NCBI RefSeq assembly: GCF_000582535.1 | Contig: NZ_CP006932.1 | Coordinates: forward strand, 210,001 to 242,000 | Length of the DNA stretch: 32,000 nt | Source: Candidatus Saccharimonadota bacterium | Lineage (GTDB): Bacteria; Bacillota_I; Bacilli_A; Mycoplasmatales; Hepatoplasmataceae | Direction of reading: 5' to 3' | Shown here: positions 5,483 to 31,826 of the stretch, piece by piece | How positions within the stretch are numbered: position 1 is the stretch's first letter | How the letters are laid out: each line of letters starts with the position of its first letter | Notes under the pieces: model-generated | What the model was told of the DNA's origin: nothing | What the model saw: only the letters and a program-made list of their open reading frames with translations | The model's database searches: none | Position numbers and translations under genes: made by a program

Positions 5483-8404
5483 ATGAAAAAATTTTCAATT
5501 TTATTTCTTATTCCTATTTTGTTATTAGGTATAAAAACTCCTAAATTAAAGGAATTAAATGATATAGAAATAAGTCAAAATGATACTATTATTAGTTTAT
5601 CTTTGAATTCTTATCATAGTGGAATTACCGTTAATACTAATAATGATGGTTACGCCGATACTCTTTATATGTGAGGAGATAATTCTTTTGGTCAACTTGG
5701 TGATGGAACAACAGAAGATTCTTTAGTTCCAATAAAAATAATTCCTCAAGGACAAGCTGATTGAAGCGGTAATTTAATTGATTTATCTTTAGGAGATTCT
5801 CATTCAGGAGTAACAGTTGATACTGATTTAGATGGTTATGCTGATACACTTTATATTTGAGGATCAGATAAATTTGGTCAAATTGGAAATGGATCAATTA
5901 GCAATAATATTTTAATTCCAATAAAAATAACTCCTCAAGGACAAACTGATTGAAGCGGTAATTTAATTGATTTATCTTTAGGAGATTATAATTCAGGAGT
6001 AACAGTTGATACTGATTTAGATGGTTATGCTGATACACTTTATATGTGAGGGTTAAATAATAGCGGTCAAATTGGAAATGGATCAAGTGGAAATAATATT
6101 TCAATTCCAACAAAAATAACACCTCAAGGACAAACTGATTGAGGTGGTAATTTAATTGATTTATCCTTAGGATACAATCATACAGGAGTAACGGTTGATA
6201 CTGATTTAGATGGATTTGGTGATACTCTTTATATGTGAGGAGATAATACATATGGTCAAATTGGAAATGGATCAAATGGCAATAATATTTTAATTCCAAC
6301 AAAAATAGCACCACAAGGACAAACTGATTGAGGTGGTTATTTAATTGATTTATCTTTAGGAAATACTAATACTGGAATTTTAATTGATAGTGATTTTGAT
6401 CAAAATGCCGATACTCTTTATATATGAGGAGATAATCTATATGGTCAAATTGGTGATGGAACAACAAAAGATTCTTTAGTTCCAAAAAAAATAACACCTC
6501 AAGGACAAACTGATTGAGGTGGTAACTTAATTGATTTAGCTTTAGGCCCATCAACTCGAAGTGCAGGAGTTTTAGTTGATGTAAATAATGATCAAAATGC
6601 CGATACTCTTTATATGTGAGGAGATAATTCTTCTGGTCAACTCGGAGATGGAACAACAAAAGTTTCTTCAATTCCAAAAAAAATAACACCTCAAGGACAA
6701 ACTGATTGAAGTGGTAATTTAATTGATTTATCTTTAGGATCATCTCATTCGGGTGTAATAGTTGATATTGATTTCGATGGTTATGCGGATACACTATATA
6801 TGTGAGGATATAATGCTTTTGGTCAACTTGGAGATGGAACAACAATAAGTGAAAGTTATCCAAAATTAATTATTTCATCTTCTCCGTTTTTTATCAAAAA
6901 TTTAGATTTTTTTAGTTATAACAACAAAATTGAATTTAATCTTGAAATAGATGATTATCAAAATATTATAAATGAAGCCCCAGAAGTAATATTAACTGAT
7001 CAAAATGATATTCAATATCAAACAACTTTTATTGCTGATAAATCAAATATTGATAATGATCAATACTATTATCAAGTTAATAATACTTTATATGGCGATA
7101 GTTATAACTTTACAGAAATTTTAATAAATGATAACAGTTTTAACATTGAGCAAAATCAAATATTAACTGATTATTTAATTTCTAATTATAGTTTTATTTC
7201 CTCTACCGAAGAAGAAGCAATTTTATCACTAGATTTAAGTCAAAATAGTGATAATTTTAATCTTGATAATTACACAAATGAACAAAAGCAAATAAATGTT
7301 AATTATACAAATCTTGATAATAATATTAATAATTCACAGCAATTTATTTTAGATCAAACAAATCAAATAAAATTAATAAATCTAAATGCAGAAACAAATT
7401 ATCAAATAGATTCAATTCAATATTTTTATGAAGATGGAAATTATAAATATACAATTGATCAAGAAGCGATGCAATTTCAAACAATTCCTGCAAATCCTAT
7501 TATTTTAGCAGATTCAATTTTAATTATAGAAAATTCAATTACAGCGAATTCTTTTCAATATACAATTGAAATTAATAATTTAAAAATAAATGAAACAAAA
7601 GATAATTTTACACAATATGATATAAATAATGGTATTTGATTAATTGATGAAAATGGCGAAAGTTATAATTCTTCTTTTATTGATGCAAAATTAATTACAA
7701 ATGGAGAAATTAATGGAACACAGAATTATCAATTAACTTTTTTGCAAGAAAATTTAATTAGTGGTCAAACTTATAATTTTACTGGAATTGGTTTTAATGA
7801 TCCAAATGGATCAAATCCTGATACGGTAAATTTTTCAAATTTAATTATAGTTGAGACGACTTTAGTAAATAAAGCCTTTGTTGATAATTCATTTTTAATA
7901 GATCAAAATTCAATTACAACAAATTCTTTTCAATATACAATTGAAATTGATAATTTAATATTAAGTAATGACTTAGAAGAAGAACCTATTTTTTCAAATT
8001 TTGATTTAAATGGAATTCTTTATTTAAAAGATCAAAATAATAATATTTATTCTTCTTATTATATTTCGAATAGTGCTTTAAATCTTGGAATAGGAGAAGA
8101 AGAAGGAACATTTAAATATCAATTTAGATTTGAAGTTAATAATTTAGAACCTAATACTAATTATAATTTTATTAGTTTAAGCTTTACAGATAATTTTGAT
8201 GATACATCTCTAGATATTTCAGAAAATGGTCAAATTATAACTGATAGTAATGCTTCCGCTAAGATAATTATTTATACAATAATTATTATCTTAATATTAA
8301 TTATATTGTTAACTATAATTTTATTATTTATTGATTTAAAAATGAAAAATAAAACAAAAAGAATGGCTGAAGCATTAGATAATCCTGATAATTATAATAA
8401 TTAG
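5483..8404 (+). CDS. surface-anchored RCC1-like seven-blade beta-propeller repeat protein (973 aa) with repeated-module stalk and C-terminal TM anchor
   Basis: Track ORFs 5483..5674 and 7742..8404 share a frame, and hand translation between them is open with many TGA=Trp. The N-terminus is signal-like (MKKFSILFLIPILLLGI). There are seven repeats of LGxSHSGVTVDTDLDGYADTLY(M/I)WGxNxxGQ(L/I)GDGT...P.KITPQGQTDW(G/S)GNLIDL. The C-terminus IIIYTIIIILILIILLTIILLFI is followed by a basic tail. Confidence 0.85.
5590..6860 (+). repeat. in-frame tandem coding repeats, period 186-192 nt, about 7 copies (propeller blades)
   Basis: The conserved Trp TGA of the LY(M/I)WG motif occurs at 5672, 5858, 6047, 6236, 6425, 6617 and 6803. 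Long stretches are nearly identical, e.g. caaggacaaactgattgaggtggtaatttaattgatttatc. Confidence 0.9.
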
Positions 8405-11725: not shown

Positions 11726-11729
11726 TAAT

Positions 11730-11772
11730 ATAAAACAAAAAAGAAGGAGTTTATCCTTCTTTTTTGTTTTAT
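11730..11772 (+). terminator. rho-independent terminator after sepF
   Basis: ataaaacaaaaaagaagga-gttta-tccttcttttttgttttat. Long stem with a GC core and a T-rich tail. Confidence 0.75.
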
Positions 11773-11832
11773 ATTATTTTGTTATAATTCAATAAATTTT
11801 TAAAATAATATCATAAGAAGGTAAATTAAATA

Positions 11833-13539
11833 ATGTATGCGAGAAATTTATGTATAAAAGAATATTTTGAAATCAATTTTTTTGATATTCCTCATTTTCA
11901 AAGAAGTTATGTTTGAAAAAAAGGAGAAATTGATGAAATTTATGATGATTTTTATATTTTTTGATTAAATAATAATGTCAAAGAGAATTCTAATATTTTT
12001 CTTGGAAGTATTTTTATATTTAAAGAAAGTAATTGGAATACAATAATAGATGGTCAACAAAGAACAATTTTTTTATATATTTTATTAACATGTTTTAAAA
12101 AAAATATTGATAATTGAAAAAAATCAGGAAATAATATAGAATCAATTTTAGAAAATTGTTCTGAAGATCAAAAAATTATGTTTAAGGATATATTGGATTG
12201 ATTTGAAAAAAGATTTATGTTTTTAGAAATAAAATATCATAATAATAAATTAATTTGAAATTCTGAAAAAGAATCATTTATAATTGAAAATAAAAAATTT
12301 ATTCAAATGAATAATCATTTTAAATATTTAATGAAAAAAATTCAAAATGATAATAAAATGAAAGAAATAAGAAATATAATTTCAATATCAAATTTTATTT
12401 TAAAAAAAATAAACATAACTTTAAATTCAATTGATAATAATGATTCTATAAATGATATTTTTGAGTCAATTAATTCAAAAGGAAAAAAATTAACTACTTT
12501 AGATTTAATAAGAAATGATTTTTATAAAAAAAATAAAAATTTATTAAAGGAATTAGATTATATAATTGAAGAAAAAAAAATTATACAAAATAATATTGAA
12601 ATTATTTTAAATGTTTTTATTTGTACAAAAAGAAAAAAATTTTTTCCTAATAATTTAGTTTATAGAGAATTAAAAAAAATTTTTAATAATAATGAAGATA
12701 AAATAGAGAATTTGTTAGAAATAATTTCTTTTTACAATAAATATTTTTCAGAAAAAATAAATAGTAAAAATTATTTTCAAAAGTGAATTTTTTTTATTGC
12801 TGAAAAATTTAATTTAAAACAATTTAAGAAAATATTTTTATTGTATATTTGAGAAAATAGAAGTTTAAAATATGATGATGAATTTTTAAAAAAAATTTTA
12901 TTAAGTATTATTTATTTTATAAATTTAAAAAATAACAGAGCAAATGAAATAGAAAGATTAATGATTAGTAATAAAAATCAATTTATAAATAATATTTTAA
13001 TTAATAATGAATTTGAATTATCTAAATTAAATTTTTGATTTAAAGATAATTATAATAATTTCATTGATCTTAATGAATTTAAAGAAGATATAAAAATGAT
13101 TTATTTATTTTATTTTTTGAATATAAAGGAAATTGATAATGCAGAACATTGATGAAATATAATTCATAAAAATATAGAGCATGTTAAATCTAAATCAATA
13201 TGTAAAGAAAAGAATATTAATTGATGTGAAAACATTGGTAATATAATTTTTTATGATTCTAAGAAAAATAAAATAGCAAGTGATTTGGATTATATAGAAA
13301 AATTAAATAGATTTTATAATGATCCAAATGGTAGAATGAGTATTAATTATAATGGTAAAAATGGAGATCCTGTTTATATAATGTACAATTATATTACAGA
13401 ATTAAAAGGAAAGATTTGAGATTTTAATACAATTAAAAATAGAAATTTTGATATATTAAATAATATAAAAGAAAAATTTCTAGAAAATTTTTCAAATTCA
13501 AATTTAAGAATAAGTAAATTTAATTATTTAGATAGATAA
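11833..13539 (+). CDS. DUF262 + DUF1524 (GmrSD-like, ParB-type NTPase/HNH-like nuclease) protein, 568 aa
   Basis: ATG 11833 is in frame with track ORF 12307..12786 and open through many TGA codons to TAA 13537-13539. The N-terminus has the DUF262 hallmarks IPHFQRSYVW and IIDGQQRT. The C-terminus has a DUF1524-type pattern, NIEHVKSKS...NIGNIIFYDSKKNKIASD. Confidence 0.7.
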
Positions 13540-13658
13540 CCAATATGCTAGTTTAATTTTATATTAAAATTATCTTGTTAAGTGCATTTAAAATTATTAT
13601 ATTCAATTTATATAATTGGGTTGTGTTTTTCGCAAATTATTTATATCAAATATTTTTA

Positions 13659-14180
13659 TTAATTTTCTATGATAATTTTAAAAAGCTTAAATTTATTTAC
13701 TGTAATTGGTTCTTCTCAATTTAGATAACAAATATTATTATTTAAATTTATCTTTATCAAATTTTCTCTTTCTTTTGATGATATTTGATAAAGAACAATC
13801 TTGTAATTACTTGTTGTATTAGGATTACTTACATAATAAGGTCTTATTTTATTTTCTGAATTTTTATATTTGTAATCTAAAATTTTATTATCATTTAGAT
13901 AAATTATTTCTTTTTCTTTTATTTTTAAACTAGCATTTATATACTTTTTAAATTTTCTTTTAAGATTACTGAAATATTTTGTATCGTTTTGATCTATTAA
14001 GAAATTATTGTAATTTTCTAAATATTGATTTTTAATATTAATTCTTTTATATTCAATAAATTTATAATATTTATCTGTTCAATTTTTAAATTTATTGAAT
14101 ATATTATTGTTTACTGAGGATGTAATAAAAATATAAAATTTAAGATTTGAGAGATTTACTTTATTATTTTTTTCTTTCAT
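13659..14180 (-). CDS. hypothetical protein, 173 aa (paralog A of an unrecognised family)
   Basis: Reverse ORF from ATG 14180 to TAA 13659-13661 with two TGA=Trp. Starts MKEKNNKVNLSNLKFYIF and ends ICYLNWEEPITVNKFKLFKIIIEN. It aligns end to end with the reverse ORF at 16174..16740. Confidence 0.6.
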
Positions 14181-14338
14181 TTTAATAATAAATCTTAAAT
14201 CTTATATATTATTTTAAATTTCAATTTAAAAAACATATTTAATCTCCCTATCTAATTAAATTATATTATTTTTAAATTATTTAATTTAATTAAAAAAATT
14301 AATATTATAATTAATTTAAAGAAGATATTAAAAATAAA

Positions 14339-15352
14339 ATGATAGATTGTAATTTAATTGAAGAATTGATAATTAAAGAGAATTTATATTTAGCATTGAA
14401 TAATTACTATGATTTTAGAAGTAAGTTTTCTTTTAGAAATTTTATATTAAATTTGGATTCAGCTTATTTGTTTTTTTTTACATATTTTTTGGAAAAAAAT
14501 AAAATTCCTTATAAAAAAGAAAATCAAAAAAATAAAGATAAAACAAAAGAGGTGGAACAAATATATAATGATTTTAATCATTATATATTTGAAAATAAAT
14601 TATTCGAACTTCCAAAAAATTTTAAAAAAAATTATGAAACTTTAAGAATTTGAAGAAATATTTTTTATCATAACCCTTTTCCTGATTCAAAAAATAAATA
14701 TTATGAATTTAATTTAAAATATTACACAGAAAAAAATTGGGATAAAAATATTAAAAAACTTTTTTTGAATTTTACAAATATAATAATTTCAAATTATATT
14801 TATTTTTATGAAAAGATTTTTAATAAAAAGATAGATGTAATTTATCCCTTTTATAAAGATTTTTCTTTTTCTGATAATTTTTCTGAAAAAATGCAAAAAG
14901 TATTTTTAAAAATTCCAAAATTAAAAGAAATTGATAATTTTTATAATGAAAATTTATTTTTCATTAATAAAATAAATCCTAATGATTATTATGGGTCAGA
15001 AAAATTATTGAAAAATATTTTAGATGATTTTATATATTTAAAATATAGAAAGTCTTACTTAAATAAAAAAAATGAAGCAACAGGATCAGAAGCTTATAAA
15101 ATTTATTATTGTTTAAATATTCATAATGATTTTTATACTAATATTAATAATAGGAAATGAATTCAAAAATATCATTTTCCTCAAAATAAATTACATGGAA
15201 TCAATTTAAAAGCTTATCATAAAGATTTAATTCCCTATATAAAATATATAGTAGATAATTTTGATAAATTTGAAATAAGAAAAAGATGAATTAATAAAAA
15301 ACCATTTTTATTATCAGAAATAAAAAAGTGAAATATTGAAAAATATAGATAA
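14339..15352 (+). CDS. hypothetical protein, 337 aa, possible Abi-like HEPN-domain protein (RNxxxH motif)
   Basis: Track ORFs 14339..14653 and 14765..15160 share a frame, and the ORF is open through TGA codons to TAA 15350-15352. Motif LRIW-RNIFYH (14654-14671) fits the HEPN R-x4-6-H signature. The size and the N-terminal LALNNYYDF resemble my memory of AbiD/AbiF (Abi_2) proteins. No profile search was possible. Confidence 0.55.
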
Positions 15353-15353
15353 A

Positions 15354-15381
15354 AAAAAGAGAACTAAAAGTTCTCTTTTTT
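15354..15381. terminator. bidirectional terminator hairpin between convergent genes
   Basis: aaaaagagaac-taaaa-gttctcttttt, with an A-run 5' and a T-run 3', so it can serve both strands. Confidence 0.65.
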
Positions 15382-15390
15382 AAAATATTA

Positions 15391-16173
15391 CTATTTTATT
15401 AATTCTGGATTTGTATCTCTTGAATCAATATTTGTATAATAATCATTTGATAATTTTAATTTATTATGATTATCAATTATTCCTAAAATATTATTACTTT
15501 TATAAAGAATATATGTATCTTCTGCTAATTCTTCTGCTGATTTTCTTTCTCAACTTTTATAATTATTTATTCAGTCTTTTGGAAGATTAGATTTTTTAGA
15601 TGCTCTTTCTGCAAATTCTGTGCTTGTTCCTGCAGGAGCCATTACTTTTACTTTTATTTTTTTATTTAATTTTTGAAGTTCTTTTGCTACATTTTCTGTT
15701 CACGCACTTACAAATACTTTTGTACTACAATATGTAATTGCAGTAGGAAGAATTTTATATCCGCCTACTGAAGATACATTTATTAATTGAGCATCTTTAT
15801 CCAAATTATCTTTTATAAACATCATTGAAAGTAATGTAAGAGCTTTAATATTTAAATCTAACATTTTTTCAGTTTTATCAATGTTAGCTTCTCATACTAA
15901 ATTTTGATCACCAAATCCGGCATTATTTATAAAAATTTCTATTTGATATTTTTTTACATCTTGATAAAATTTTTTTATTTGATCTGAATTTGATAAATCT
16001 ATTGTAAATACAATAACATCAATTTTATATTTACTTTCTAATTGATTTTTAATTTCATTTAATAAATTTGTTCTTCTTGCTGCAATTATAAGATTATGTC
16101 CTTCTCTTGCAAATTTTTCAGCAAGTGCTTTTCCGATTCCTGAACTTGCACCTGTAATTAATGTATATTTCAT
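15391..16173 (-). CDS. SDR-family NAD(P)-dependent oxidoreductase (paralog 1, 260 aa)
   Basis: Track ORF 15892..16212 extends through TGA codons to TAG 15391-15393. Contains MKYTLITGASSGIGKA (TGxxxGxG), NNAG and the catalytic YCSTK (YxxxK). The start is taken at ATG 16173 by alignment with paralog 2. The frame stays open upstream into the preceding gene. Confidence 0.8.
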
Positions 16174-16740
16174 ATTTATTATCTTTCTGCACCATATTAT
16201 ATTATTTTTCACTGAATTAGATTCAAGAATTATTTTAAATAATTTAAATTTATTTACTGTAATTGGTTCTTCTGAATTTAAATAACATATATGATTATTT
16301 ATTTCAATTTTTTTTAAACTCGGTCTTTCTTTTGAAGAAATTTGATAAATTACAACTTTATGATTATTTTTTGTATTCGGATCATTTATAAAATATGGTC
16401 TATTTTTATTCTCTGAGTCTTTATATTTATAATCTAAAATTTTATTATCATTTAAATAAATTACTTCTTTATTTTTTACTTTTAAATTAGCATTTACATA
16501 TTTCTTAAATTTTTTCTTAAGATTACTAAAATATTTTGTATCATTTTCATCTATTAAAAAATTATCATATTTTTCAAAATACTTATCTTTACAATCAATC
16601 CTTTGATATTCGATAAAATTTTGATATTTATTCGTTCAATTTTTAAATTGTTCTAAAACATTAATTCCTACTTTTTCTGAAATAAAAATTTTAAATTTTA
16701 TTTCTAGCAAATTAAATTTATCAAAATTTTTTTCTTTCAT
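16174..16740 (-). CDS. hypothetical protein, paralog B of the 13659..14180 family; no stop codon, reads in frame into SDR paralog 1
   Basis: ATG 16740. Starts MKEKNFDKFNLLEIKFKIF and ends ICYLNSEEPITVNKFKLFKIILESNSVKNNIIWCRKIIN, running directly into MKYTLITGASS. Hand translation finds no TAA/TAG between 16740 and 15394. Under code 4 a single 449-codon ORF 15391..16740 is equally callable. Confidence 0.55.
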
Positions 16741-16750
16741 TTCATTTTAA

Positions 16751-17506
16751 TTAAACTCAACGAATATCATAATAACCATCATTCATTTTTAATTCATTAT
16801 TTTTAATTATTCCAAGAATATTATCACTTTTATATAATTTGTAAGTTTCCTCTGCTAATTCTTGTGCTGATTTTTTATTTACTCTATTTTTATATTCTTC
16901 AATTTGTTTTTGATTATATTTTGTTTTTGTTAAGGCTCGATCGTTAAATTCACTTTCGGTTGCTCCGGGGGCTAAAATTTTTACTTTAATTTTTTTATTT
17001 AATTTTCTTAATTGTTTTGCAACGCTTTCTGTTCATGATGATACAAAAACTTTTGAAGCTGAATAACTTATTGCTTTTGAAAAAATACTATAACCAGCAA
17101 CAGAAGATACATTTATTAATTGAACATCATTATCTAAATTATCTTTAATAAACATTATTGAAAGTGTTGTTAATGATTTAATATTTAGATCAATCATTTT
17201 TTCAATTTTTTTAATATCTGAATCTCAAGGTAAATTTACATCTCCAAATCCAGCATTATTTATAAAAATTTCAATTTGATATTTTTTTACATTTTTATAA
17301 AAATTTTGTATTTCATTAGAATTAGATAAATCGACAGTAAATACAATAACATCAATTTTATATTTACTTTCTAATTGATTTTTAATTTCATTTAATAAAT
17401 TTGTTCTTCTTGCTGCAATTATAAGGTTATGTCCCTCTTTTGCAAATTTTTCAGCAAGTGCTTTTCCGATTCCTGAACTTGCTCCTGTAATTAATGTATA
17501 TTTCAT
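16751..17506 (-). CDS. SDR-family NAD(P)-dependent oxidoreductase (paralog 2, 251 aa)
   Basis: RBS AGGAG lies 6 nt upstream of ATG 17506. Track ORF 17225..17527 continues through TGA codons to TAA 16751-16753. Contains TGASSGIGKA, NNAG and YSASK. Confidence 0.85.
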
Positions 17507-17738
17507 TTTTATCTCCTTTCTAAACAAATTATATTATTTTTTAAATGATTATTTAAATTTTCAATATATGTATCTTTCTTTATTTTAATTCATATTATTT
17601 TCTAAAAAAAAGATATATTTTCTTAAAAAATAAAAAGAATATAATTATTTTGAAAAGTGAAAATAAAATAAGCTTTTTTTAGGGGATTTTTAATTTTTAT
17701 GTATTAAAAATTAATAATTAAATAAAGGGATAAAAATT

Positions 17739-21674: not shown

Positions 21675-22616
21675 ATGAAAAATAAACGCATAGTCCTTGC
21701 TTTAGGTGGTAATGCTTTAGGTGATACTCCAAAAGAACAACAAGAAGCAGTAAAAAAAACAGCAATTTCTATTGTTGATTTAATTGAAAAAGGATATCAA
21801 ATTTTAATAGGACATGGAAATGGACCTCAAGTTGGGATGATTTCTTTAGCTTTTGATGAAGCTTCAAAAATTAATAAAAAGATACCAAAATTAGATTTAG
21901 TTCTTGCAGGAGCAATGTCTCAAGGTTATATAGGAATTCATTTAAAAAATGCAATTGATAATGAACTTTTAAAAAGAAAAATTAATAAAAATGTTTATGC
22001 ATTAATTTCACAAGCAATAGTTGATCATAATGATCCAGCTTTTAAAAATCCAACAAAACCAATTGGAGGATTTTATTCAAAAGAAGAATCAAAAGAATTA
22101 GCAAAAAATACTACATGAAAATTTATAGAAGATGCTGGAAGAGGCTATCGAAGAGTTGTTCCTTCTCCTAAACCAATTACATTAATGGAAAAAGATTTAA
22201 TTAATAAAGGATTAGATGCTGGTTTTATTTTAATTGCTGGAGGTGGAGGTGCTATTGCAACTTATAAAGAAAATGATAAATATAATATGATTGATGCAGT
22301 AATAGATAAAGATTATACTGCAGAAATAATGGCTGAAATGATTGATGCTGATTTATTTATAATAGTAACTGCAGTAGATGGAATTTATTTAGATTATAAT
22401 ACACCAAACCAAAGAATTCTTTCTAATCCAAAAATAAAGGATTTAAAAAAACTTCTTGATCAAAAAATATTTCCTTCTGGTTCTATGGAACCTAAAGTTG
22501 AAACAGCAGTAAAATTTGCTTCTTCCAAAAAAAGCAGAAAATCAATTATTACTTCGCTTGCAAAATTAAAAGAATCTTTAGAAGGAAATAAATATGGGAC
22601 ACATATTGAAAACTAA
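21675..22616 (+). CDS. arcC: carbamate kinase
   Basis: Track ORFs 21675..22118 and 22185..22616 share a frame and join over one TGA. Contains RIVLALGGNAL, GHGNGPQVG, AGRGYRRVVPSP and GGGGAIA. Confidence 0.95.
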
Positions 22617-22660
22617 TATTTAATTAATTTTTTATATTATTTTATAGATTAAATATTCTA

Positions 22661-22699
22661 AAATAATTATTAAATCTAAATTTAATAATTATTTTTTTT
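22661..22699 (+). terminator. candidate rho-independent terminator of the ADI operon
   Basis: aaataattattaaat-ctaa-atttaataattattt (15-bp all-AT stem) followed by a T-run. Confidence 0.45.
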
Positions 22700-23353
22700 A
22701 TTTAAAGTATATGAGATTAATTTAAAGATAAAACCAATATATAATTATCTTAATAAAAGGAAATAGAATAATGAATCAAAATAAAATTGAAAAAATTATT
22801 ATATTAATTATTTTGAAAATACAAAAGATGAGAATATTTCTAAATGAATAAAAAAACATTTAAATTCATTGAAAGATTTAAATTTTGAGTTAAATAAATT
22901 TAAAGAAGAAAATTTAAAATTAATAAGTAAATTAGATGATCAGATAAATAATAAATTTAATTTAAAAAAAGAAGAAAAAAAACTAAGTAAAATATATTAA
23001 TTAATGATTTGAATAAATGAAAATTTAAATTTTATTTTTAATATCATATACAATTTATGAATTTATTGTTGATAATCAAATTGATTATTTTTCTGAAATT
23101 GAAGAAATTTTTTCAATTTTTATTTCTTTATCTATATTTATAATGATTTTATATTTTTCTTTATTTATTGAAAAAAACAAAAAACAACAAAAAATAAAAA
23201 AAGGTTCGGAAAAAAACAATCAAGAAAATAAAAGAATAATATTAGAATGAGATTTTTATAATACGAAGGGAAAAGAAATTATATTAAAAGATAATATTGA
23301 AAATTAAAAAGAATTAGATATAAATATGAAAAAAGAAAATAATTAATATAAAT

Positions 23354-23385
23354 AAAAGGAGCAGAAAATTAATTCTGCTCCTTTT
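23354..23385. terminator. terminator hairpin downstream of SDR paralog 3
   Basis: aaaaggagcagaa-aattaa-ttctgctcctttt. GC-containing stem, T-rich on both sides. Confidence 0.65.
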
Positions 23386-23392
23386 ATTTATA

Positions 23393-24157
23393 TTACATTC
23401 AAATTTTACGTAAACGTTTTCTTAAAATGAATTTTTTAAATACAGGATGAACAATTCCAACTGTTTTTTTTGAATTATATAATTTTCAAGTATATTCAGC
23501 TAGTTTCTGTGGGTCTTTTCCTTTACTATTAAAAATTTCAATTAGTGTTTTTTTATTTTCTTTTTCAATATTTGCATTTAGTACTGCTACTTCTGCAAAT
23601 TCTGTTTTTGTAATACTTGGAGCTAAAACTTTAACTTTTAATTTTGCTTTGCTTTTTTTAAGAATTTTTGTGATTATTTCACTATATACAGATACATAAA
23701 ATTTAGTAGCTGAATAGATAGATTCTCTTCCTCAAGCCATATATCCTGCTACAGAAGAAACATTGATAATTTGTGATTCTTTTTCTAAATTATCTTTGAT
23801 AAATAATGTTGTAAGGATTGTAAGGGCTTTTATATTTAAATCAATCATTTGTTCTGCCTTTTTAAGATCAGTATCTCATGGTTTTGCTTCATCACCAAAA
23901 CCAGCATTATTTACCAAAAGATTAATATCATTTTGCTTGATTTGTTGATAGAATTTATAAACATTTTCTGAAATTGATAAATCATATACATAAACTAAAA
24001 CTTTTATTTTATATTTATCTTCTAATTCTTTTTTTAAATTATCAAGTAATTCTTTTCTTCTTGCAACAATTATTAAATTATATTTCTCGCTTGCAAATTT
24101 TATTGCAATTTCTTTTCCAATTCCAGAACTTGCTCCTGTTATTACTACATATTTCAT
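23393..24157 (-). CDS. SDR-family NAD(P)-dependent oxidoreductase (paralog 3, 254 aa)
   Basis: Track ORF 23876..24157 continues through TGA codons to TAA 23393-23395. Contains MKYVVITGASSGIGKE, NNAG and YSATK. Confidence 0.85.
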
Positions 24158-24187
24158 ATTTTCGTTTTTCTTTCTTTTATTTAATTT

Positions 24188-24463
24188 TTAATAGTATTTT
24201 GAAAATACTATCATTGGTGTTAAAACATGATTATAAAGTTGACCTAATACTAATTGACTATTAGTATTAGAATCTCACACATAAACAATATCTCCTAATA
24301 CATTATTATTTTAATCTAAAAGTAACATAGCATCATCATTTCCTACTTGTTTTTTAATAATATTATCATTTTAATCTTTTTCTTGTTATGTTATTTTTGT
24401 AATTGGAAAATTTAAAGTATTTGATTCTCCATTTTCAATTTGTCCATATTGATTTTTCTTCCA
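24188..24463 (-). pseudogene. inverted remnant of about 1.5 RCC1-like propeller blades with in-frame stops
   Basis: One reverse frame reads LWKKNQYGQIENGESNTLNFPITKIT*QEKD*NDNIIKKQVGNDDAMLLLD*NNNVLGDIVYVWDSNTNSQLVLGQL. It aligns with a one-residue gap to the blade consensus YMWGDNxYGQIGNG...IPTKITPQGQTDWGGNLIDL..G...GV.VD.D.DG.GDTLYMWGDNxxGQ. Confidence 0.6.
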
Positions 24464-25075
24464 CAAGCAATAGTTGATCATAATGATCTAGCTTTTAAAA
24501 ATCCAACAAAACCAATTGGAGGATTTTATTCAGAGCAAGAGGCAAAAAAAATAACAAAAGAGACTGGATGAAAATTTATAGAAGATGCTGGAAGAGGCTA
24601 TCGAAGAGTTGTTCCTTCTCCTAAACCAATTACATTAATGGAAAAAGATTTAATTAATAAAGGATTAGATGCTGGTTTTATTTTAATTGCTGGAGGTGGA
24701 GGTGCTATTGCAACTTATAAAGAAAATGATAAATATAATATGATTGATGCAGTAATAGATAAAGATTATACTGCAGAAATAATGGCTGAAATGATTGATG
24801 CTGATTTATTTATAATAGTAACTGCAGTAGATGGAATTTATTTAGATTACAATACACCAAACTAAAGAATTCTTTCTAATTCAAAAATAAAGGATTTAAA
24901 AAAACTTCTTGATCAAAAAATATTTCCTTTTGGTTCTATGGGTCCTAAAGTCGAAACAGTTATTAAATTTACTAATTCAAAATTAAATAGAAAATAAATT
25001 ATTATTTCGCTTGATAAATTAAAAGAATCTTTAGAAGGAAATAAATACAGAATTCATATTGAAAATAATTATTAA
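24462..25075 (+). pseudogene. truncated carbamate kinase copy (3' two-thirds of arcC) with premature stops
   Basis: Homologous to arcC from codon ~110 (SQAIVDHND) to the end, and it lacks the 5' third. CAA is replaced by TAA at 24863-24865, and there is a second in-frame TAA near 24996. Track ORF 24638..24865 is identical in protein to arcC 22185 onward. Confidence 0.85.
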
Positions 25076-25097
25076 ATTAATTAATATATGATTTTTA

Positions 25098-25105
25098 TGT
25101 ATAAT
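25098..25105 (+). promoter_or_regulatory. extended -10 promoter element TGTATAAT
   Basis: Exact TGTATAAT 23 nt upstream of ATG 25128. RBS AAGAGG at 25113-25118. Confidence 0.4.
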
Positions 25106-25127
25106 TTTTTATAAGAGGTCTTTTATA

Positions 25128-28103
25128 ATGAAAAAAAATTTTATATTTTCGATATTATTATTTTTAATTACATCTTTTTCTTTTAAATCATTTGATTTAA
25201 TTTTTGATAATAAAAATATAATTGAATCTTTAGATCAAAATGTAAAAGTTTTAGATTATGAAATGGCTGATTCTACTGCTGGTGTTATTGTTGATACAGA
25301 TAGTGATTATTTGGGAGATACACTTTATATGTGAGGATTAAATAGTCGTGGTCAAATTGGTGATGGAACAACTACACTTGCCACTGATCCAAAAATGATA
25401 ACTCCAACTGACCAAACAGATTGAGGTGGTAATTTAATTCAATTTGAATCATCACTTTATAATTCAGGTGTAACGGTAGATACTGATTATGATGGCTATG
25501 CAGATACAATTTATATTTGAGGAGATAATCAATATCATCAAATATTCAATGATGAAAGTGAAAGTAAAACTATTTTATTTCCTACTCTTGTTTTACCTTC
25601 TAGTGGATCTTGAAATGGAAATATTATTGATTTTTTTCTTGGAGACTCATATGTTGGTATTTTATTAGATACTGATTATGATGGATTTGGTGATGATTTA
25701 TATACTTGAGGTAATAATAATAATGGGGAACTTGGAAATGGAACAACTCAAACAGCTTCTGAACCTGTAGAAATATTTCCATCTGGACAAACTTCTTGAA
25801 ATGGTAATATAACTGATATTTATGGATATAATTCTACTTTTCTTTTATTAGATACTGACTATGATGGATATGCAGATACTGGATATTCTTGAGGTAATAA
25901 TAGTAATTATAAATTAGGTATTAATAGTACATCATCAAGTGTTACTACTCCAACAGAAATCGTTTCAAATGGGGGAACTTGAAATGGTAATATCCTTGAT
26001 GTTTCTTCAAATTCTGATAATTCTATGCTTTTACTTGATACAAATTTTGATGGATATGGAGATGAAGTTTATTTATCAGGGACTAATTATGAATTTCAAC
26101 TTGGAATTGGTGGCAATGAAAATTATGTAAAGCACTCTATTTTTTATCCTGCTAGTCATACTTGAGGTAATGGTTATATTATTGATGTTTCAATGGGCAA
26201 AAATTATTCAGTAATTATTGTAGATACTGATTTAGATGGATATGCAGATGCTTTTTATGGTGATGGTTATAATAGTCATGGACAACTTGGAACATCTAAT
26301 TATGCAGGTAGTCGTAAAGGACCAAGAAAACTTACAAAAACCTTTGATAGAAATGATTTTTCTAGTTATTATAAATATAATTTTATGCAAATTGAAACAG
26401 GAACTAATTCTACAGGAATTTTAGTTGATACTGATCTTGATGGATATGGCGATACATTATATATGTCAGGAGCAAATGTAAATTCTGATTTCGGTAATAG
26501 TATTATTTCTTCTGGAGATTATAAAACTCCTATTGCTACAAATTCAACTTATGATTTTTTAATTCAGGATTTGTATTTTGATTTTGATGGAGTTTTGTTA
26601 TCAATAGATTTAAAATTAAATGATTATCAAAATATTTTTAATGAAGAAACATTACCCACTAATGTTTTATTAATTGATGATAATAATATCAGTCACCAAA
26701 CAATTTTTGAAGAAGATTTATCAAATATTACAGATGATCAATATCATTATAAAGTTGAAGATATTGAAGGTGTTCAAACTTATATATTTAAAAATATATC
26801 AATAAATGATAATATTTTTAATTTAAATGATGAGCAATTTTCTACTGATTATTTAATATCAGATTATCAAATTTCTAATATTTCAGAACAGTCAGCGACA
26901 ATTAATTTAAATTTTGAAAATAATAGTGAAGAATTTGATTTATTAAATTACACTTCTTCTGAACGAAAAATTAAAGTAAATTATACTGATTTGGATCAAA
27001 ATATCTCTAATTCCCAAGAATTTGTAATTGATGATTCCTATGAAATTACACTAATAAATTTAAATGCTGAATCAAATTATCAAATAGATTCAATTCAATA
27101 TTTTTATCAAGATGAAAATTATAAACATACTATAGATCAAGAAAAAACACAATTTCAAACATCTTCTGCTATACCTTTAATAGAATCTGATAGTATAAAA
27201 TCTATCGATAATTCAATTACAACAAATTCTTTTCAATATACAATTTTAATTGATAATTTAAAATTAAATCAAACAAAAGATAATTTTACACAATATGATA
27301 TAAATAATGGTATTTGATTAATCGATGAAAATAATGAAAATTATAATTCAACTTATATTAATGCAAAAATAATTAATTCTGGTTCAATAAATGGAACAGG
27401 AAAATATCAATTAACATTTAAGCAAGATCAATTAATTGAAAATACAACATATAATTTTATTGGTATAAGTTTTGATGAGCCTTCAAGTTCTAGTGATCCT
27501 AATATAGTATTTTTTTCTAATGTTTTTTCAATAACAACAGCTTCTGCAAATAAAGAAATTATTCCTTCTACTTTTTCAATAATTGAGGATTCAATTACAA
27601 AAACTTCATTTCAATATACAATTGAAATAGATAATTTGTTTTTGATAGAGGATTCTTTATTAATTAAAAATAATCTTGAAGCAGAAATAAATTTTAGTAA
27701 TTTTAATCTTGATGAAGGAATTTATTTAATAGATGATAATGGAAATATATATAATTCTTTTTATGTAAATGATAGTTCACTTTATCTTGGAGAAGGAAAA
27801 GATGAAGGAACTTCAAATTATCAATTTACATTTGAACAAAATAATCTTGAAGCAGGCAGAACATATAATTTTGTTGGAATAGGATTTACTGATTTAGAAG
27901 AAGACTTTATTAATTTTGACTCTTCAATAGCAATTAACACTGTTCCTAATAATACACAAATGATAGTAATTATTATTATTATCATTATTTTAATCATTAT
28001 TTTGCTACTTATTTTTATCTTATTATTTGTTGATTTAAAAATGAAAAAAAATACAAAAAAAATGAATAATAAACTTAATAATCCTAATGGTTTGGAAGAT
28101 TAA
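25128..28103 (+). CDS. surface-anchored RCC1-like seven-blade repeat protein, paralog 2 (991 aa)
   Basis: Track ORFs 25128..25334, 26193..27317 and 27636..28103 are all in one frame, and the gaps checked by hand are open through TGA codons. The N-terminus is signal-like. There are seven degenerate blades (GDTLYMWGLNSRGQIGDGT through GDTLYMSGANVNSDFG). It has the same stalk modules and the same TM plus basic tail as 5483..8404. Confidence 0.85.
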
Positions 28104-28856: not shown

Positions 28857-31826
28857 TTGAAAAAAAATTTTATTTTTTCCATATTGTTGTTTTTAATTAC
28901 ATCTTTTTCTTTTAAATCATTTGACTTAGTTTTTGATAATAAAAATATAGTTGAATCTTTAGATCAAAATGTAAAAGTTTTAGATTATGAAATGGCTAAT
29001 TCTACTGCTGGTGTTATTGTTGATACAGATAGTGATTATTTGGGAGATACACTTTATATGTGAGGATTAAATAATTATGGCCAAATTGGTGATGGAACAA
29101 CTACACTTGCAACTGATCCAAAAATGGTAATTCCAACTGACCAAACAGATTGAGGTGGCAATTTAATTCAATTTGAATCATCTGCTTATAATTCAGGTGT
29201 AACAGTAGATACTGATTATGATGGTTATGCAGATACAATTTATATTTGAGGAGATAATAGATATCATCAAATATTTAACAACGATGAAAGTGGTTCTATC
29301 TTATTTCCTACTCTTGTTTTACCTTCTAGTGGATCTTGAAATGGAAATATTATTGATTTTTTTCTTGGAGATGCATATGCTGGTATTTTATTAGATACTG
29401 ATTATGATGGATTTGGTGATGATTTATATACTTGAGGTAATAATAATAATGGGGAACTTGGAAATGGAACAACTCAAACAGCTTCTGAACCTTTAGAAAT
29501 ATTTCCATCTGGACAAACTTCTTGAAATGGTAATATAACTGATATTTATGGATATAATTCTACTTTTCTTTTATTAGATACTGATTATGATGGATATGCA
29601 GATACTGGATATTCTTGAGGTAATAATAATAATTATAAATTAGGTGTCAATAGTACATCATCAAAAGTTACTACTCCAACAGAAATCGTTTCAAATGGAG
29701 GAACTTGAAGTGGTAATATTCTTGATGTTTCTTCAAATAGTAATAATTCTATGCTTTTACTTGATACAAATTTTGATGGATATGGAGATGAAGTTTATTT
29801 ATCAGGGACTAATTATGAATTTCAACTTGGAATTGGTGGCAGTAATAATGTAAAGCACTCTATTTTTTATCCTGCTAGTCATACTTGAGGTAATGGTTAT
29901 ATTATTGATGTTTCAATGGGTGTAAATTATTCAGTAATTATTGTAGATACTGATTTAGATGGATATGCAGATGCTTTTTATGGTGATGGTTATAATAGTC
30001 ATGGACAACTTGGAACATCTAGTTATGCAGGTAGTCGTAAAGGACCAAGAAAACTTACAAAAACCTTTGATAGAAATGATTTTTCTAGTTATTATAAATA
30101 TAATTTTATGCAAATTGAAACAGGATCTAATTCTACAGGAATTTTAGTTGATACTGATCTTGATGGATATGGTGATACATTATATATGTCAGGAGCAAAT
30201 GTAAATTCTGATTTCGGTAATAGTATTATTTCTTCTGGAGATTATAAAACTCCTATTGCTACAAATTCAACTTATGATTTTTTAATTCAGGATTTGTATT
30301 TTGATTTTGATGGAGTTTTGTTATCAATAGATTTAAAATTAAATGATTATCAAAATATTTTTAATGAAGAAGCATTACCCACTAATGTTTTACTAATAGA
30401 TAATAATAATATCAGTCATCAAACAATTTTTGAAGAAGATTTATCAAATATTACAGATGATCAATATCATTATAAAGTTGAAGATATTGAAGGTGTTCAA
30501 ACTTATATATTTAAAAATATATCGATAAATGATAATATTTTTAATTTAAATGATGAGCAATTTTCTACTGATTATTTAATATCAGATTACCAAATTTCTA
30601 ATATTTCAGAACAATCAGCGACAATTAATTTAAATTTTGAGAATAATAGTGAAGAATTTGATTTATTAAATTACACTTCTTCTGAACGAAAAATTAAAGT
30701 AAATTATACTGATTTGGATCAAAATATCTCTAATTCACAAGAATTTGTAATTGATGATTCCTATGAAATTACACTAACAAATTTAAATGCTGAATCAAAT
30801 TATCAAATAGATTCAATTCAATATTTTTATCAAGATGAAAATTATAAACATACTATAGATCAAGAAGAAAAACAATTTCAAACATCTTCTGCTATACCTT
30901 TAATAGAATCTGATAGTATAAAATCTATCGATAATTCAATTACAACAAATTCTTTTCAATATACAATTTTAATTGATAATTTAAAATTAAATCAAGCAAA
31001 AGATAATTTTACACAATATGATATAAATAATGGTATTTGATTAATCGATGAAAATAGTGAAAATTATAATTCCACTTATATTAATGCAAAAATAATTAAT
31101 TCAGGTTCAATAAATGGAACAGGAAAATATCAATTAACATTTAAGCAAGATCAATTAATTGAAAATACAACATATAATTTTATTGGTATAAGTTTTGATG
31201 AACCTTCAAGTTCTAGTGATCCTAATATAGTATTTTTTTCTAATGTTTTTTCAGTAACAACAGTTTCTGCTAATAAAGAAATTATTCCTTCTACTTTTTC
31301 AATAATTGAAGATTCAATTACAAAAACTTCATTTCAATATACAATTGAAATAGATAATCTGTTTTTGATAGAAGATTCTTTATTAATTAAAAATAATCTT
31401 GAAGCAGAAGTAAATTTTAGTAATTTTAATCTTGATGAAGGAATTTATTTAATAGATGATAATGGAAATATATATAATTCTTTTTATGTAAATGATAGTT
31501 CGCTTTATCTTGGAGAAGGAAAAGATGAAGGAACTTCAAATTATCAATTTACATTTGAACAAAATAATCTTGAAGCAGGTAGAACATATAATTTTGTCGG
31601 AATTGGCTTTACCGATTTAGAAGAAGATTTTATTAATTTTGACTCTTCAATAACAATTAATACTGTTCCTAATAATACACAAATGATAGTAATTATTATC
31701 ATTATCATTATTTTAATCATTATTTTGCTACTTATTTTTATCTTATTATTTGTTGATTTAAAAATGAAAAAAAATACAAAAAAAATGAATAATAAACTTA
31801 ATAATCCTAATGGTTTGGAAGATTAA
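28857..31826 (+). CDS. surface-anchored RCC1-like seven-blade repeat protein, paralog 3 (989 aa), apparent TTG start
   Basis: Track ORFs 28857..29063, 29916..31040 and 31365..31826 share one frame. It is near-identical to 25128..28103, with only a handful of substitutions in the 374-aa track segments. The position homologous to the ATG of paralog 2 is TTG, after a 3-nt deletion. Confidence 0.8.

Follow-up and report, generated by a model that had tools for sequence, protein, structure and literature searches.

The concept of defense islands and defense hotspots is said to go back to Makarova et al. in 2011 and to later hotspot studies. Here we describe a probable case of such a hotspot, the interval between sepF and arcA in Candidatus Hepatoplasma crinochetorum strain Av, a member of a genus of uncultured isopod symbionts with genomes of ∼0.65 Mb. 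The window, which denotes the whole stretch of DNA that was analyzed, comprises 32,000 nucleotides (positions 210,001 to 242,000 of contig NZ_CP006932.1, numbered below from its first letter), and the locus occupies 11773–17527. The contig is the genome of strain Av (PMC10928387).

One protein of this locus belongs to the GmrSD family, which is defined by an (I/V)(I/V)DGQQR motif in DUF262, an E/D-H-N-N motif in DUF1524 and a linker of 200–400 residues (Machnicka et al., 2015; PMC4619093). In E. coli GmrD the nuclease residues are H114, N169 and N178, a spacing of H-19-N-9-N once a 36-residue insertion is removed (PMC4619093). For the Hepatoplasmataceae, the genome paper reports Type I and Type II restriction-modification (R-M) and CRISPR-Cas9 as defense systems (PMC10928387). 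GmrSD and the sepF-arcA locus are mentioned neither there nor in the original report of the genome (PMC3942034), and a full-text literature search returned no paper that pairs Hepatoplasma with GmrSD or DUF262.

We consider it probable that the sepF-arcA interval is a chromosomal defense-gene hotspot on a conserved, genus-specific backbone; as such it is a clear and fairly ordinary bacterial one. It resembles described hotspots in its conserved flanks, its precise breakpoints and its alternative defense cargoes among near-identical strains. It differs from the usual ones in its setting in a ∼0.65-Mb symbiont genome, in the lack of a mobile-element signature and in having slots that are interleaved with a backbone rather than placed between two housekeeping genes. 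This backbone consists of genes for short-chain dehydrogenases/reductases (SDRs) and of g173 and its relatives.

Gene content of the sepF-arcA interval

Genetic code 4, in which TGA encodes Trp, is in use in the window: translation table 4 gave complete open reading frames (ORFs) and table 11 broke up all genes, and the Trp codons of the window genes were >100 TGA versus three TGG. Under table 4 the locus holds five genes, here named g568, g173, g337, g449 and g258. The original prediction had counted six proteins and had described the reverse-strand group as an SDR-unknown-SDR operon. That operon consists of two genes, an SDR gene and a fusion of the unknown domain with a second SDR, and the fused halves are not separated by a stop codon.

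The intrinsic terminator of sepF (11728–11774, plus strand), a 20-pair hairpin followed by a T-run, forms the left edge of variable slot 1. The cargo of this slot is g568 (11833–13539, plus strand), whose 568-aa product belongs to the GmrSD family by its Pfam DUF262 match. Between slots 1 and 2 lies the backbone gene g173 (13659–14180, minus strand); its 173-aa product had already been listed as a protein of unknown type and had no significant family match. A promoter-like leader of slot 2 (14274–14338, plus strand) shows a TTAATA-16-TATAAT match at 14331–14304 on the minus strand. It precedes the ORFan g337 (14339–15352, plus strand), the cargo of slot 2, whose 337-aa product carries the RNxxxH motif of the original prediction as R106-N-I-F-Y-H111. 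A bidirectional terminator (15353–15381), which is a 13-pair hairpin between the convergent genes g337 and g449, marks the right edge of slot 2. The 449-aa g449 (15391–16740, minus strand) is a single table-4 ORF that joins a g173-like domain in frame to an SDR, and g258/251 (16751–17506, minus strand), a classical SDR with an adh_short match, is the first gene of the SDR operon. A third SDR paralog (23393–24157, minus strand; adh_short E=5e-37) is located outside the sepF-arcA interval in Av.

There was no tRNA in the locus, no flanking direct repeat around it and no integrase or transposase among the window ORFs, as the original prediction had stated. The locus also had no Rfam element. The GC content of g568, g173 and g337 was 14.5–15.5%, versus 24.9 ± 3.3% for the other genes, and the deficit was confined to codon positions 1 and 2. 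At the third codon position (GC3) the three genes had 6.5–9.8% GC, equal to the background of 8.6 ± 2.6%. The low GC content therefore traces to amino-acid composition and carries no foreign-DNA signature. With GC3 the same inside and outside the locus, composition gave no sign of foreign origin and was dropped as evidence for it.

Strain comparison and exchangeable slots

Comparison loci, which carry L numbers below, were found by exact-protein look-ups of FtsZ and SepF and then of g173 and g568 homologs. Species-representative genomes contained no close relative (best FtsZ 52% identical) and gave no usable synteny. The Av lineage and the lineage of strain Ps are ∼80% identical at SepF and RsmH. 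Where the cargo differs, the flanks are 98.7–100% identical in the Av lineage and 99.2–99.5% in the Ps lineage. The exchangeable DNA amounts to ∼1.8 kb for the GmrSD gene and ∼1.1 kb for g337, and the conserved backbone to ∼2.7 kb. The expected defense-type cargo was found in the interval, with the GmrSD gene confirmed and the cargo differing between strains. The single accessory island of ∼5.7 kb that had been proposed was not: just two sub-cassettes exchange within a conserved backbone. Synteny from sepF to arcA was strain-variable for the defense-type cargo and, for g173, the fusion and the SDR, conserved in Av, AP027132, Ps and Candidatus H. scabrum.

Slot 1 carries the GmrSD gene in the window and in L081, L083, L084, L087 (AP027132) and L096 of the Av lineage. 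L085, also of the Av lineage, matches the window with 99.3% identity as far as 11769 and is wholly divergent beyond, which places the left boundary at the strong sepF terminator, where it had been predicted. Its slot 1 encodes a D12 methyltransferase (PADLOC MTase_II E=3.9e-73), a 188-aa protein with a PD...E-x-K motif and a membrane protein; the contig ends before slot 2. PDB searches with the sequence and profile of the candidate restriction endonuclease gave no match. In the Ps lineage L094 carries the GmrSD gene (566 aa) and the Ps-like L092 a four-gene R-M cassette, with the break ∼52 nt past the sepF stop codon. The GmrSD/R-M dimorphism occurs in two lineages. Between Av and Ps the R-M alleles are 73% (methyltransferase) and 61% (endonuclease) identical, comparable to the GmrSD alleles (61%), g173 (69%) and the flanking genes (69–81%). 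The R-M allele also carries two extra genes of 218 and 158 aa (L092 2428–3550, L085 5767–5991), whose products have N-terminal transmembrane segments and no family match.

Slot 2 was more diverse. It holds g337 in the window and in L084, which is 100% identical to the window over 8.1 kb. L083 encodes an 873-aa RecD-like helicase in the same place (AAA_30 E=2.4e-17, PADLOC PDC-S68 E=6.6e-24); it is 99.9% identical to the window up to 14316 and resumes at 15377 with 98.8%. The g337 and helicase alleles have ∼45 nt of the promoter-like leader in common. In L081 and L087 the slot contains ∼237 nt of non-coding DNA, and these alleles diverge from the window at ∼14273. A plain deletion of g337 was ruled out as the origin of such 'empty' slots, as the 237-nt spacer resembles none of the cargo genes. 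The slot is also empty in L091 (Candidatus H. scabrum), which has a 565-aa GmrSD protein in slot 1, so g337 is absent from L081, L087 and L091. In L092 and L094 the slot carries a SLATT-like protein with two transmembrane segments (2TM) and a Panacea-like protein. At the right edge each allele has its own hairpin variant.

Two further arrangements were found beyond slot 2. Adjoining arcA, L091 has an extra SDR gene, a SLATT-like 2TM gene and a Panacea-like gene. The 11.4-kb interval of L094 contains a second pair of the same kind, three SDR genes and an RCC1-type gene. The pairs of Panacea-like and 2TM genes are located at L094 12509–13710 and 16170–17403, L091 5308–6550 and L092 391–1592. One member has 253–274 aa and matches phrog_1281 (E=2e-11), besides SocA_Panacea; the other has 116–146 aa and two transmembrane segments and matches SLATT_4 (E=1e-5) and a PADLOC 2TM effector (E=2e-6). 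From these matches the pairs look like modules of a PanA-type antitoxin and a membrane toxin. In strain Ps the order SDR, Panacea-like, 2TM, g173-like is recurrent.

The GmrSD-family protein of slot 1

The N-terminal part of g568 matched Pfam GmrSD_N/DUF262 (PF03235) over residues 15–230 with E=5.6e-23. The PADLOC models HEC-06, Orf5 and SspE matched most of its length (E down to 1.1e-22), and similarity in the PDB, to SspE and a DUF262 protein, was confined to the N-terminal domain. The motif IIDGQQR is at residues 71–77, and D73–R77 were invariant in an alignment of 11 sequences, 7 of which had a precomputed PF07510 (DUF1524) assignment. In the same alignment E449, G469, N470 and N479 formed invariant columns and H450 was present in 9/11 sequences; the resulting spacing, H-20-N-9-N, agrees with that of GmrD given above. 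PF07510 was faint in a 61%-identical ortholog and occurred together with PF03235 in most remote homologs. Homologs outside Hepatoplasma were at most 33% identical. The original prediction of a DUF262/DUF1524 GmrSD-like protein was therefore sound for the family and for DUF262, and its DUF1524, which escapes profile detection, became visible solely through the alignment with homologs.

We assign g568 to the GmrSD family, with a nuclease domain that appears degenerate yet motif-complete; it is a new member of a known family and a putative Type IV modification-dependent restriction enzyme by analogy with that family. It resembles the single-chain Type IV enzymes GmrSD, BrxU and SspE in the IIDGQQR motif of DUF262, in the E-H-N-N spacing, in its setting in a variable locus and in its single polypeptide with a linker of ∼215 residues, DUF262 ending at ∼230 and the nuclease motif starting at 449. 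It differs from them in a DUF1524 below Pfam detection, a PDB similarity limited to DUF262 and an extreme, AT-driven composition. The ORF is intact, at 565–568 aa with an invariant DGQQR, in at least five lineages. In the Candidatus H. scabrum ortholog (L091 10646–12343) FEYV replaces IEHV and DGQQR is intact, and judging from this substitution the His-Me nuclease activity of that copy may have been lost.

The orphan gene of slot 2

The g337 protein had no PHROGs relative, no phage match by tblastn and no PDB match, a two-sequence profile search included. Among 5.8 billion clustered proteins it matched itself alone. An exhaustive HMMER search of 1.84 billion representatives retrieved one distant homolog, P0008, with 42% identity over residues 101–333. 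R106 and H111 are kept in P0008 (RGTYYH), inside the best-conserved block, YHNPF.D.KNK. The P0008 gene (L093 1937–2949) comes from another Hepatoplasma-like lineage, where it neighbors an SDR gene, three small genes and an aldehyde dehydrogenase gene. It is split into ORFs of 83 and 236 aa just upstream of the R-x4-H motif, and a pseudogene, a frameshift or a misassembly could account for the split.

When the g337 sequence was shuffled, RNxxxH occurred in ∼2% of the shuffles and the generic Rx4-6H in 38%. A single-sequence AlphaFold2 (AF2) model was all-alpha, and its mean predicted local distance difference test (pLDDT) value of 38 is too low for it to serve as evidence. At this confidence its helices are 4–24, 32–53, 66–84 and 95–110, and the last of these ends in the motif. 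In the analysis of Anantharaman et al. from 2013, HEPN motifs reportedly sit on the fourth helix. Compared with HEPN abortive-infection and toxin ribonucleases (RNases; Rx4-6H), g337 shares the RNxxxH motif, the R and H kept in its sole homolog, a predicted all-alpha fold and a position in a defense slot; it differs from them in having no profile, sequence or structural match and no antitoxin/MNT partner gene nearby. From the motif it is possible that g337 is a HEPN protein, and we hold this identification as tentative. The stronger argument for a defense-type role is the company that the gene keeps, as every identifiable occupant of slot 2 is defense- or toxin-antitoxin (TA)-like.

The conserved backbone

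The order and orientation of g173, the fusion and one or more SDR genes are the same in Av, AP027132, Ps and Candidatus H. scabrum. The ratios of nonsynonymous to synonymous substitution rates (dN/dS) between Av and Candidatus H. scabrum were 0.21 for g173, 0.19 for the N-terminal domain of the fusion, 0.25 for its SDR and 0.26 for g258. The reference genes gave 0.22 (sepF), 0.18 (rsmH) and 0.17 (arcA). The backbone genes are under purifying selection, comparable to that on sepF and rsmH.

The g173 gene was present in every locus variant examined. Six clusters of relatives were found, all from Hepatoplasma, and a metagenome scan with the g173 profile returned no relatives. There was no match in Pfam, PHROGs or the PDB, nor by tblastn against plasmids. 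Weak matches to PADLOC PDC-M44B (E=0.002–0.003) and NCBIfam TumE (E=0.05–0.06) both covered residues 34–111 and were seen in 3/8 family members; the NF045777 score was 13.3 bits (13–15 bits across the family), against a curated cut-off of 90. No TumA-like or small helix-turn-helix (HTH) gene adjoined g173. The AF2 model (pLDDT 52.7) had two helices and seven strands, and Foldseek found no match to it below E=0.2. TumE (Durairaj et al., 2023; PMC10584680) and g173 thus share the weak profile matches over 34–111 and, in this low-confidence model, the count of secondary-structure elements. Against TumE-TumA, g173 scores far below the cut-off, has no TumA-like neighbor and is ∼50 residues longer. 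An assignment to TumE was rejected, the matches being weak and inconsistent across the family. A by-eye likeness of the C-terminal half of g173 to the MazF signature had suggested a MazF/PemK protein; this was also rejected, with an hhalign probability of 0.1% against B. subtilis EndoA (PDB 4ME7), a Smith-Waterman score equal to the shuffle mean (p∼0.5) and no PDB match for the family profile.

Residues 1–175 of g449 are paralogous to g173 (69% identical in amino acids, 82% in DNA), and residues 190–449 form the SDR (adh_short E=1.5e-37 at 192–383), joined by a linker of 15–16 residues. The fusion is kept at 449 aa in Av and AP027132, at 448 in Ps and at 442 in Candidatus H. scabrum. The linker is open in three lineages and its Trp-Cys pair is kept, the Trp codon being TGG in Av and TGA in Candidatus H. 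scabrum and Ps. As the codon is maintained as a sense codon, the fusion is real. In the window it encodes Trp-183 at 16159–16161 and is one of the three TGG codons of the window genes.

The g258 protein (adh_short E=9.3e-38) and the SDR half of g449 share 72% identity. The ATG at 17506, with an AGGAG 8 nt ahead of it, is from the sequence the probable start; the end at 17527 corresponds to a TTG extension. The third SDR paralog is 51% identical to g258. Its counterparts, SDR260 in L094 and SDR253 in L091, are located before arcA and inside the sepF-arcA interval of Ps and Candidatus H. scabrum. The SDR motifs are intact (TGASSGIG, NNAG and YCSTK/YSASK/YSATK), with adh_short E∼1e-37 in all three paralogs. 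The closest solved structures to g258 are promiscuous ketoreductases (E∼1e-50), and it shares TGxxxGIG, NNAG and YxxxK with classical SDRs of the COG0300/promiscuous ketoreductase type (PDB 9D7J CaADH, 7E28). The set differs from known SDRs in one copy with a 175-residue, Hepatoplasma-only N-terminal domain and in the presence of three paralogs within 32 kb of a very small genome.

Origin and function of the locus

A hotspot of this kind would work as follows. The co-oriented backbone genes (g173, the g173-like::SDR fusion and one SDR paralog or several) would be vertically inherited. Slot 1 begins directly past the sepF terminator, slot 2 extends from g173 to the SDR-operon terminator, and some lineages have a third slot beside arcA. 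The observed breakpoints are the sepF terminator, the g173-proximal intergenic leader and the SDR-operon terminator. By analogy with its family, the DUF262/ParB-like domain of g568 (DGQQR) would bind and hydrolyze nucleoside triphosphates and its DUF1524 His-Me finger (E449-H450-N470-N479) would cleave modified foreign DNA. The g337 protein would most plausibly be a stand-alone abortive-infection or toxin-type effector, possibly a HEPN RNase acting through R106/H111. Cargo would probably be swapped by homologous recombination via the conserved flanks after DNA uptake, without a mobile element; as mobile-element features are absent, homologous recombination is the simplest explanation.

Several observations weigh against a functional defense hotspot, and in part they are shared with the idea that the interval has nothing to do with defense and is instead a lineage-specific stretch that evolves fast, with g568 as a decaying relic and the cassette differences as neutral indels in a reduced genome. 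Pfam finds no DUF1524/PF07510 in g568, even when the C-terminus is searched by itself at E≤10, the Candidatus H. scabrum ortholog and one remote homolog have Tyr in place of the predicted general-base His, and the dN/dS of g568 against Candidatus H. scabrum is 0.49, faster than that of neighboring genes; these three features suggest that the nuclease may be decaying in some lineages. The empty slot-2 alleles indicate that cargo is dispensable. The 188-aa protein of L085 is weakly assigned (PDDEXK_11 E=0.0033), as are the SocA_Panacea proteins (E=0.03–0.08), and g337 has no match to any defense, HEPN or toxin family profile, so that any role for it would follow purely from where it lies and from a brief motif. 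The comparison contigs are for the most part short assemblies from metagenome or SRA data, and we know of no Hepatoplasma phage. A region unrelated to defense is nonetheless quite improbable: neutral indels would not be expected to yield identifiable alternative cargoes that are all of defense or TA type (R-M, RecD-like PDC-S68, SLATT 2TM), a GmrSD/R-M dimorphism is maintained in two lineages, and g568 has kept its length and its invariant DGQQR. Less probable still is a single strain-specific island of 5.7 kb, horizontally acquired as a whole, a mobile-element remnant that carries defense genes and SDR operon together. Such an island would fit the GC content of g568, g173 and g337, which is ∼3 standard deviations under that of neighboring genes, the end of housekeeping genes at a strong terminator and the frequent presence of GmrSD genes in mobile defense islands (PMC4619093). 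Yet three further Hepatoplasma genomes have g173, the fusion and the SDR in this place, these genes are under purifying selection, GC3 equals that of the flanks, and no integrase, transposase, tRNA or flanking repeat is present. Strains differ in sub-cassettes alone, with internal breakpoints, and synteny largely refutes the single island.

For g337 we lean slightly towards an unrelated orphan, be it another toxin or abortive-infection effector, a factor for anti-defense or immunity or a young gene without function, in which RNxxxH would be coincidental. This would agree with the lack of matches in Pfam, NCBIfam, PADLOC, PHROGs and the PDB, even with the two-sequence profile, with the uninformative AF2 model, with the frequency of the generic motif among shuffles and with the split of the sole homolog, which suggests a dispensable gene. 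What speaks for HEPN instead is the retention of R and H in the most conserved block of a 42%-identical homolog, the ∼2% chance expectation for the RN variant, the low-confidence placement of the motif on predicted helix four of an N-terminal region that is all-alpha and the defense- or TA-like nature of all other slot occupants. A second question of identity concerns the backbone, where the g173 family could be a divergent TumE-like (DUF6516) toxin domain and g173 and the fusion a conflict or TA-type system rather than metabolic genes. The coincidence of the PDC-M44B and TumE matches at residues 34–111, a helix and strand count equal to that of TumE (PMC10584680) and the recurrence of g173-like genes beside SLATT-like/Panacea-like pairs in Ps favor this idea. 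We give it little credence, given matches in 3/8 members at 13–15 bits versus a cut-off of 90, no Pfam match, no adjoining HTH antitoxin gene, no significant Foldseek match, and strong purifying selection at a fixed position, which suit a core function. Taken jointly, it is unlikely that either of two broader ideas holds, namely that the GmrSD/Type II R-M alternatives of slot 1 are an old polymorphism under balancing selection across Hepatoplasma lineages, or that an undescribed, SDR-using conflict system is built around the g173 domain. Under balancing selection, a modification-dependent nuclease and a methyltransferase would exclude each other as alleles and partition the gene flow of an obligate symbiont. 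The conflict system would concern a genus-specific domain that is free-standing, fused to a ketoreductase and, in Ps, repeated beside SLATT-like/Panacea-like pairs.

If the interval is the defense hotspot that we propose, even so small a genome keeps a multi-slot hotspot in which Type IV and Type II restriction are allelic, which would point to continuing pressure from phages or foreign DNA and to recombination in symbiont populations. The sepF-arcA locus is also a ready marker for strain typing, and g337 is an orphan candidate effector. The fusion of a g173-like domain to a ketoreductase is the least understood and potentially the most original part of the locus.

Neighboring variable regions

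The region downstream of arcC (window 22617–25058) is a second variable spot. Besides the third SDR paralog it contains a 141-codon arcC fragment at 24440–24865, which is 95% identical at the DNA level to arcC 22006–22305. In AP027132 (L087) an RCC1-type gene lies directly 3' of arcC, and Av therefore carries a duplication or insertion of ∼2.4 kb. Three large RCC1-repeat proteins with a C-terminal membrane anchor are encoded in the window at 5483–8404 (973 aa), 25059–28103 (∼1000 aa) and 28857–31826 (989 aa), the latter two being near-identical tandem paralogs. The copy number and position of RCC1-repeat genes vary among Hepatoplasma genomes (L087, L091, L094).

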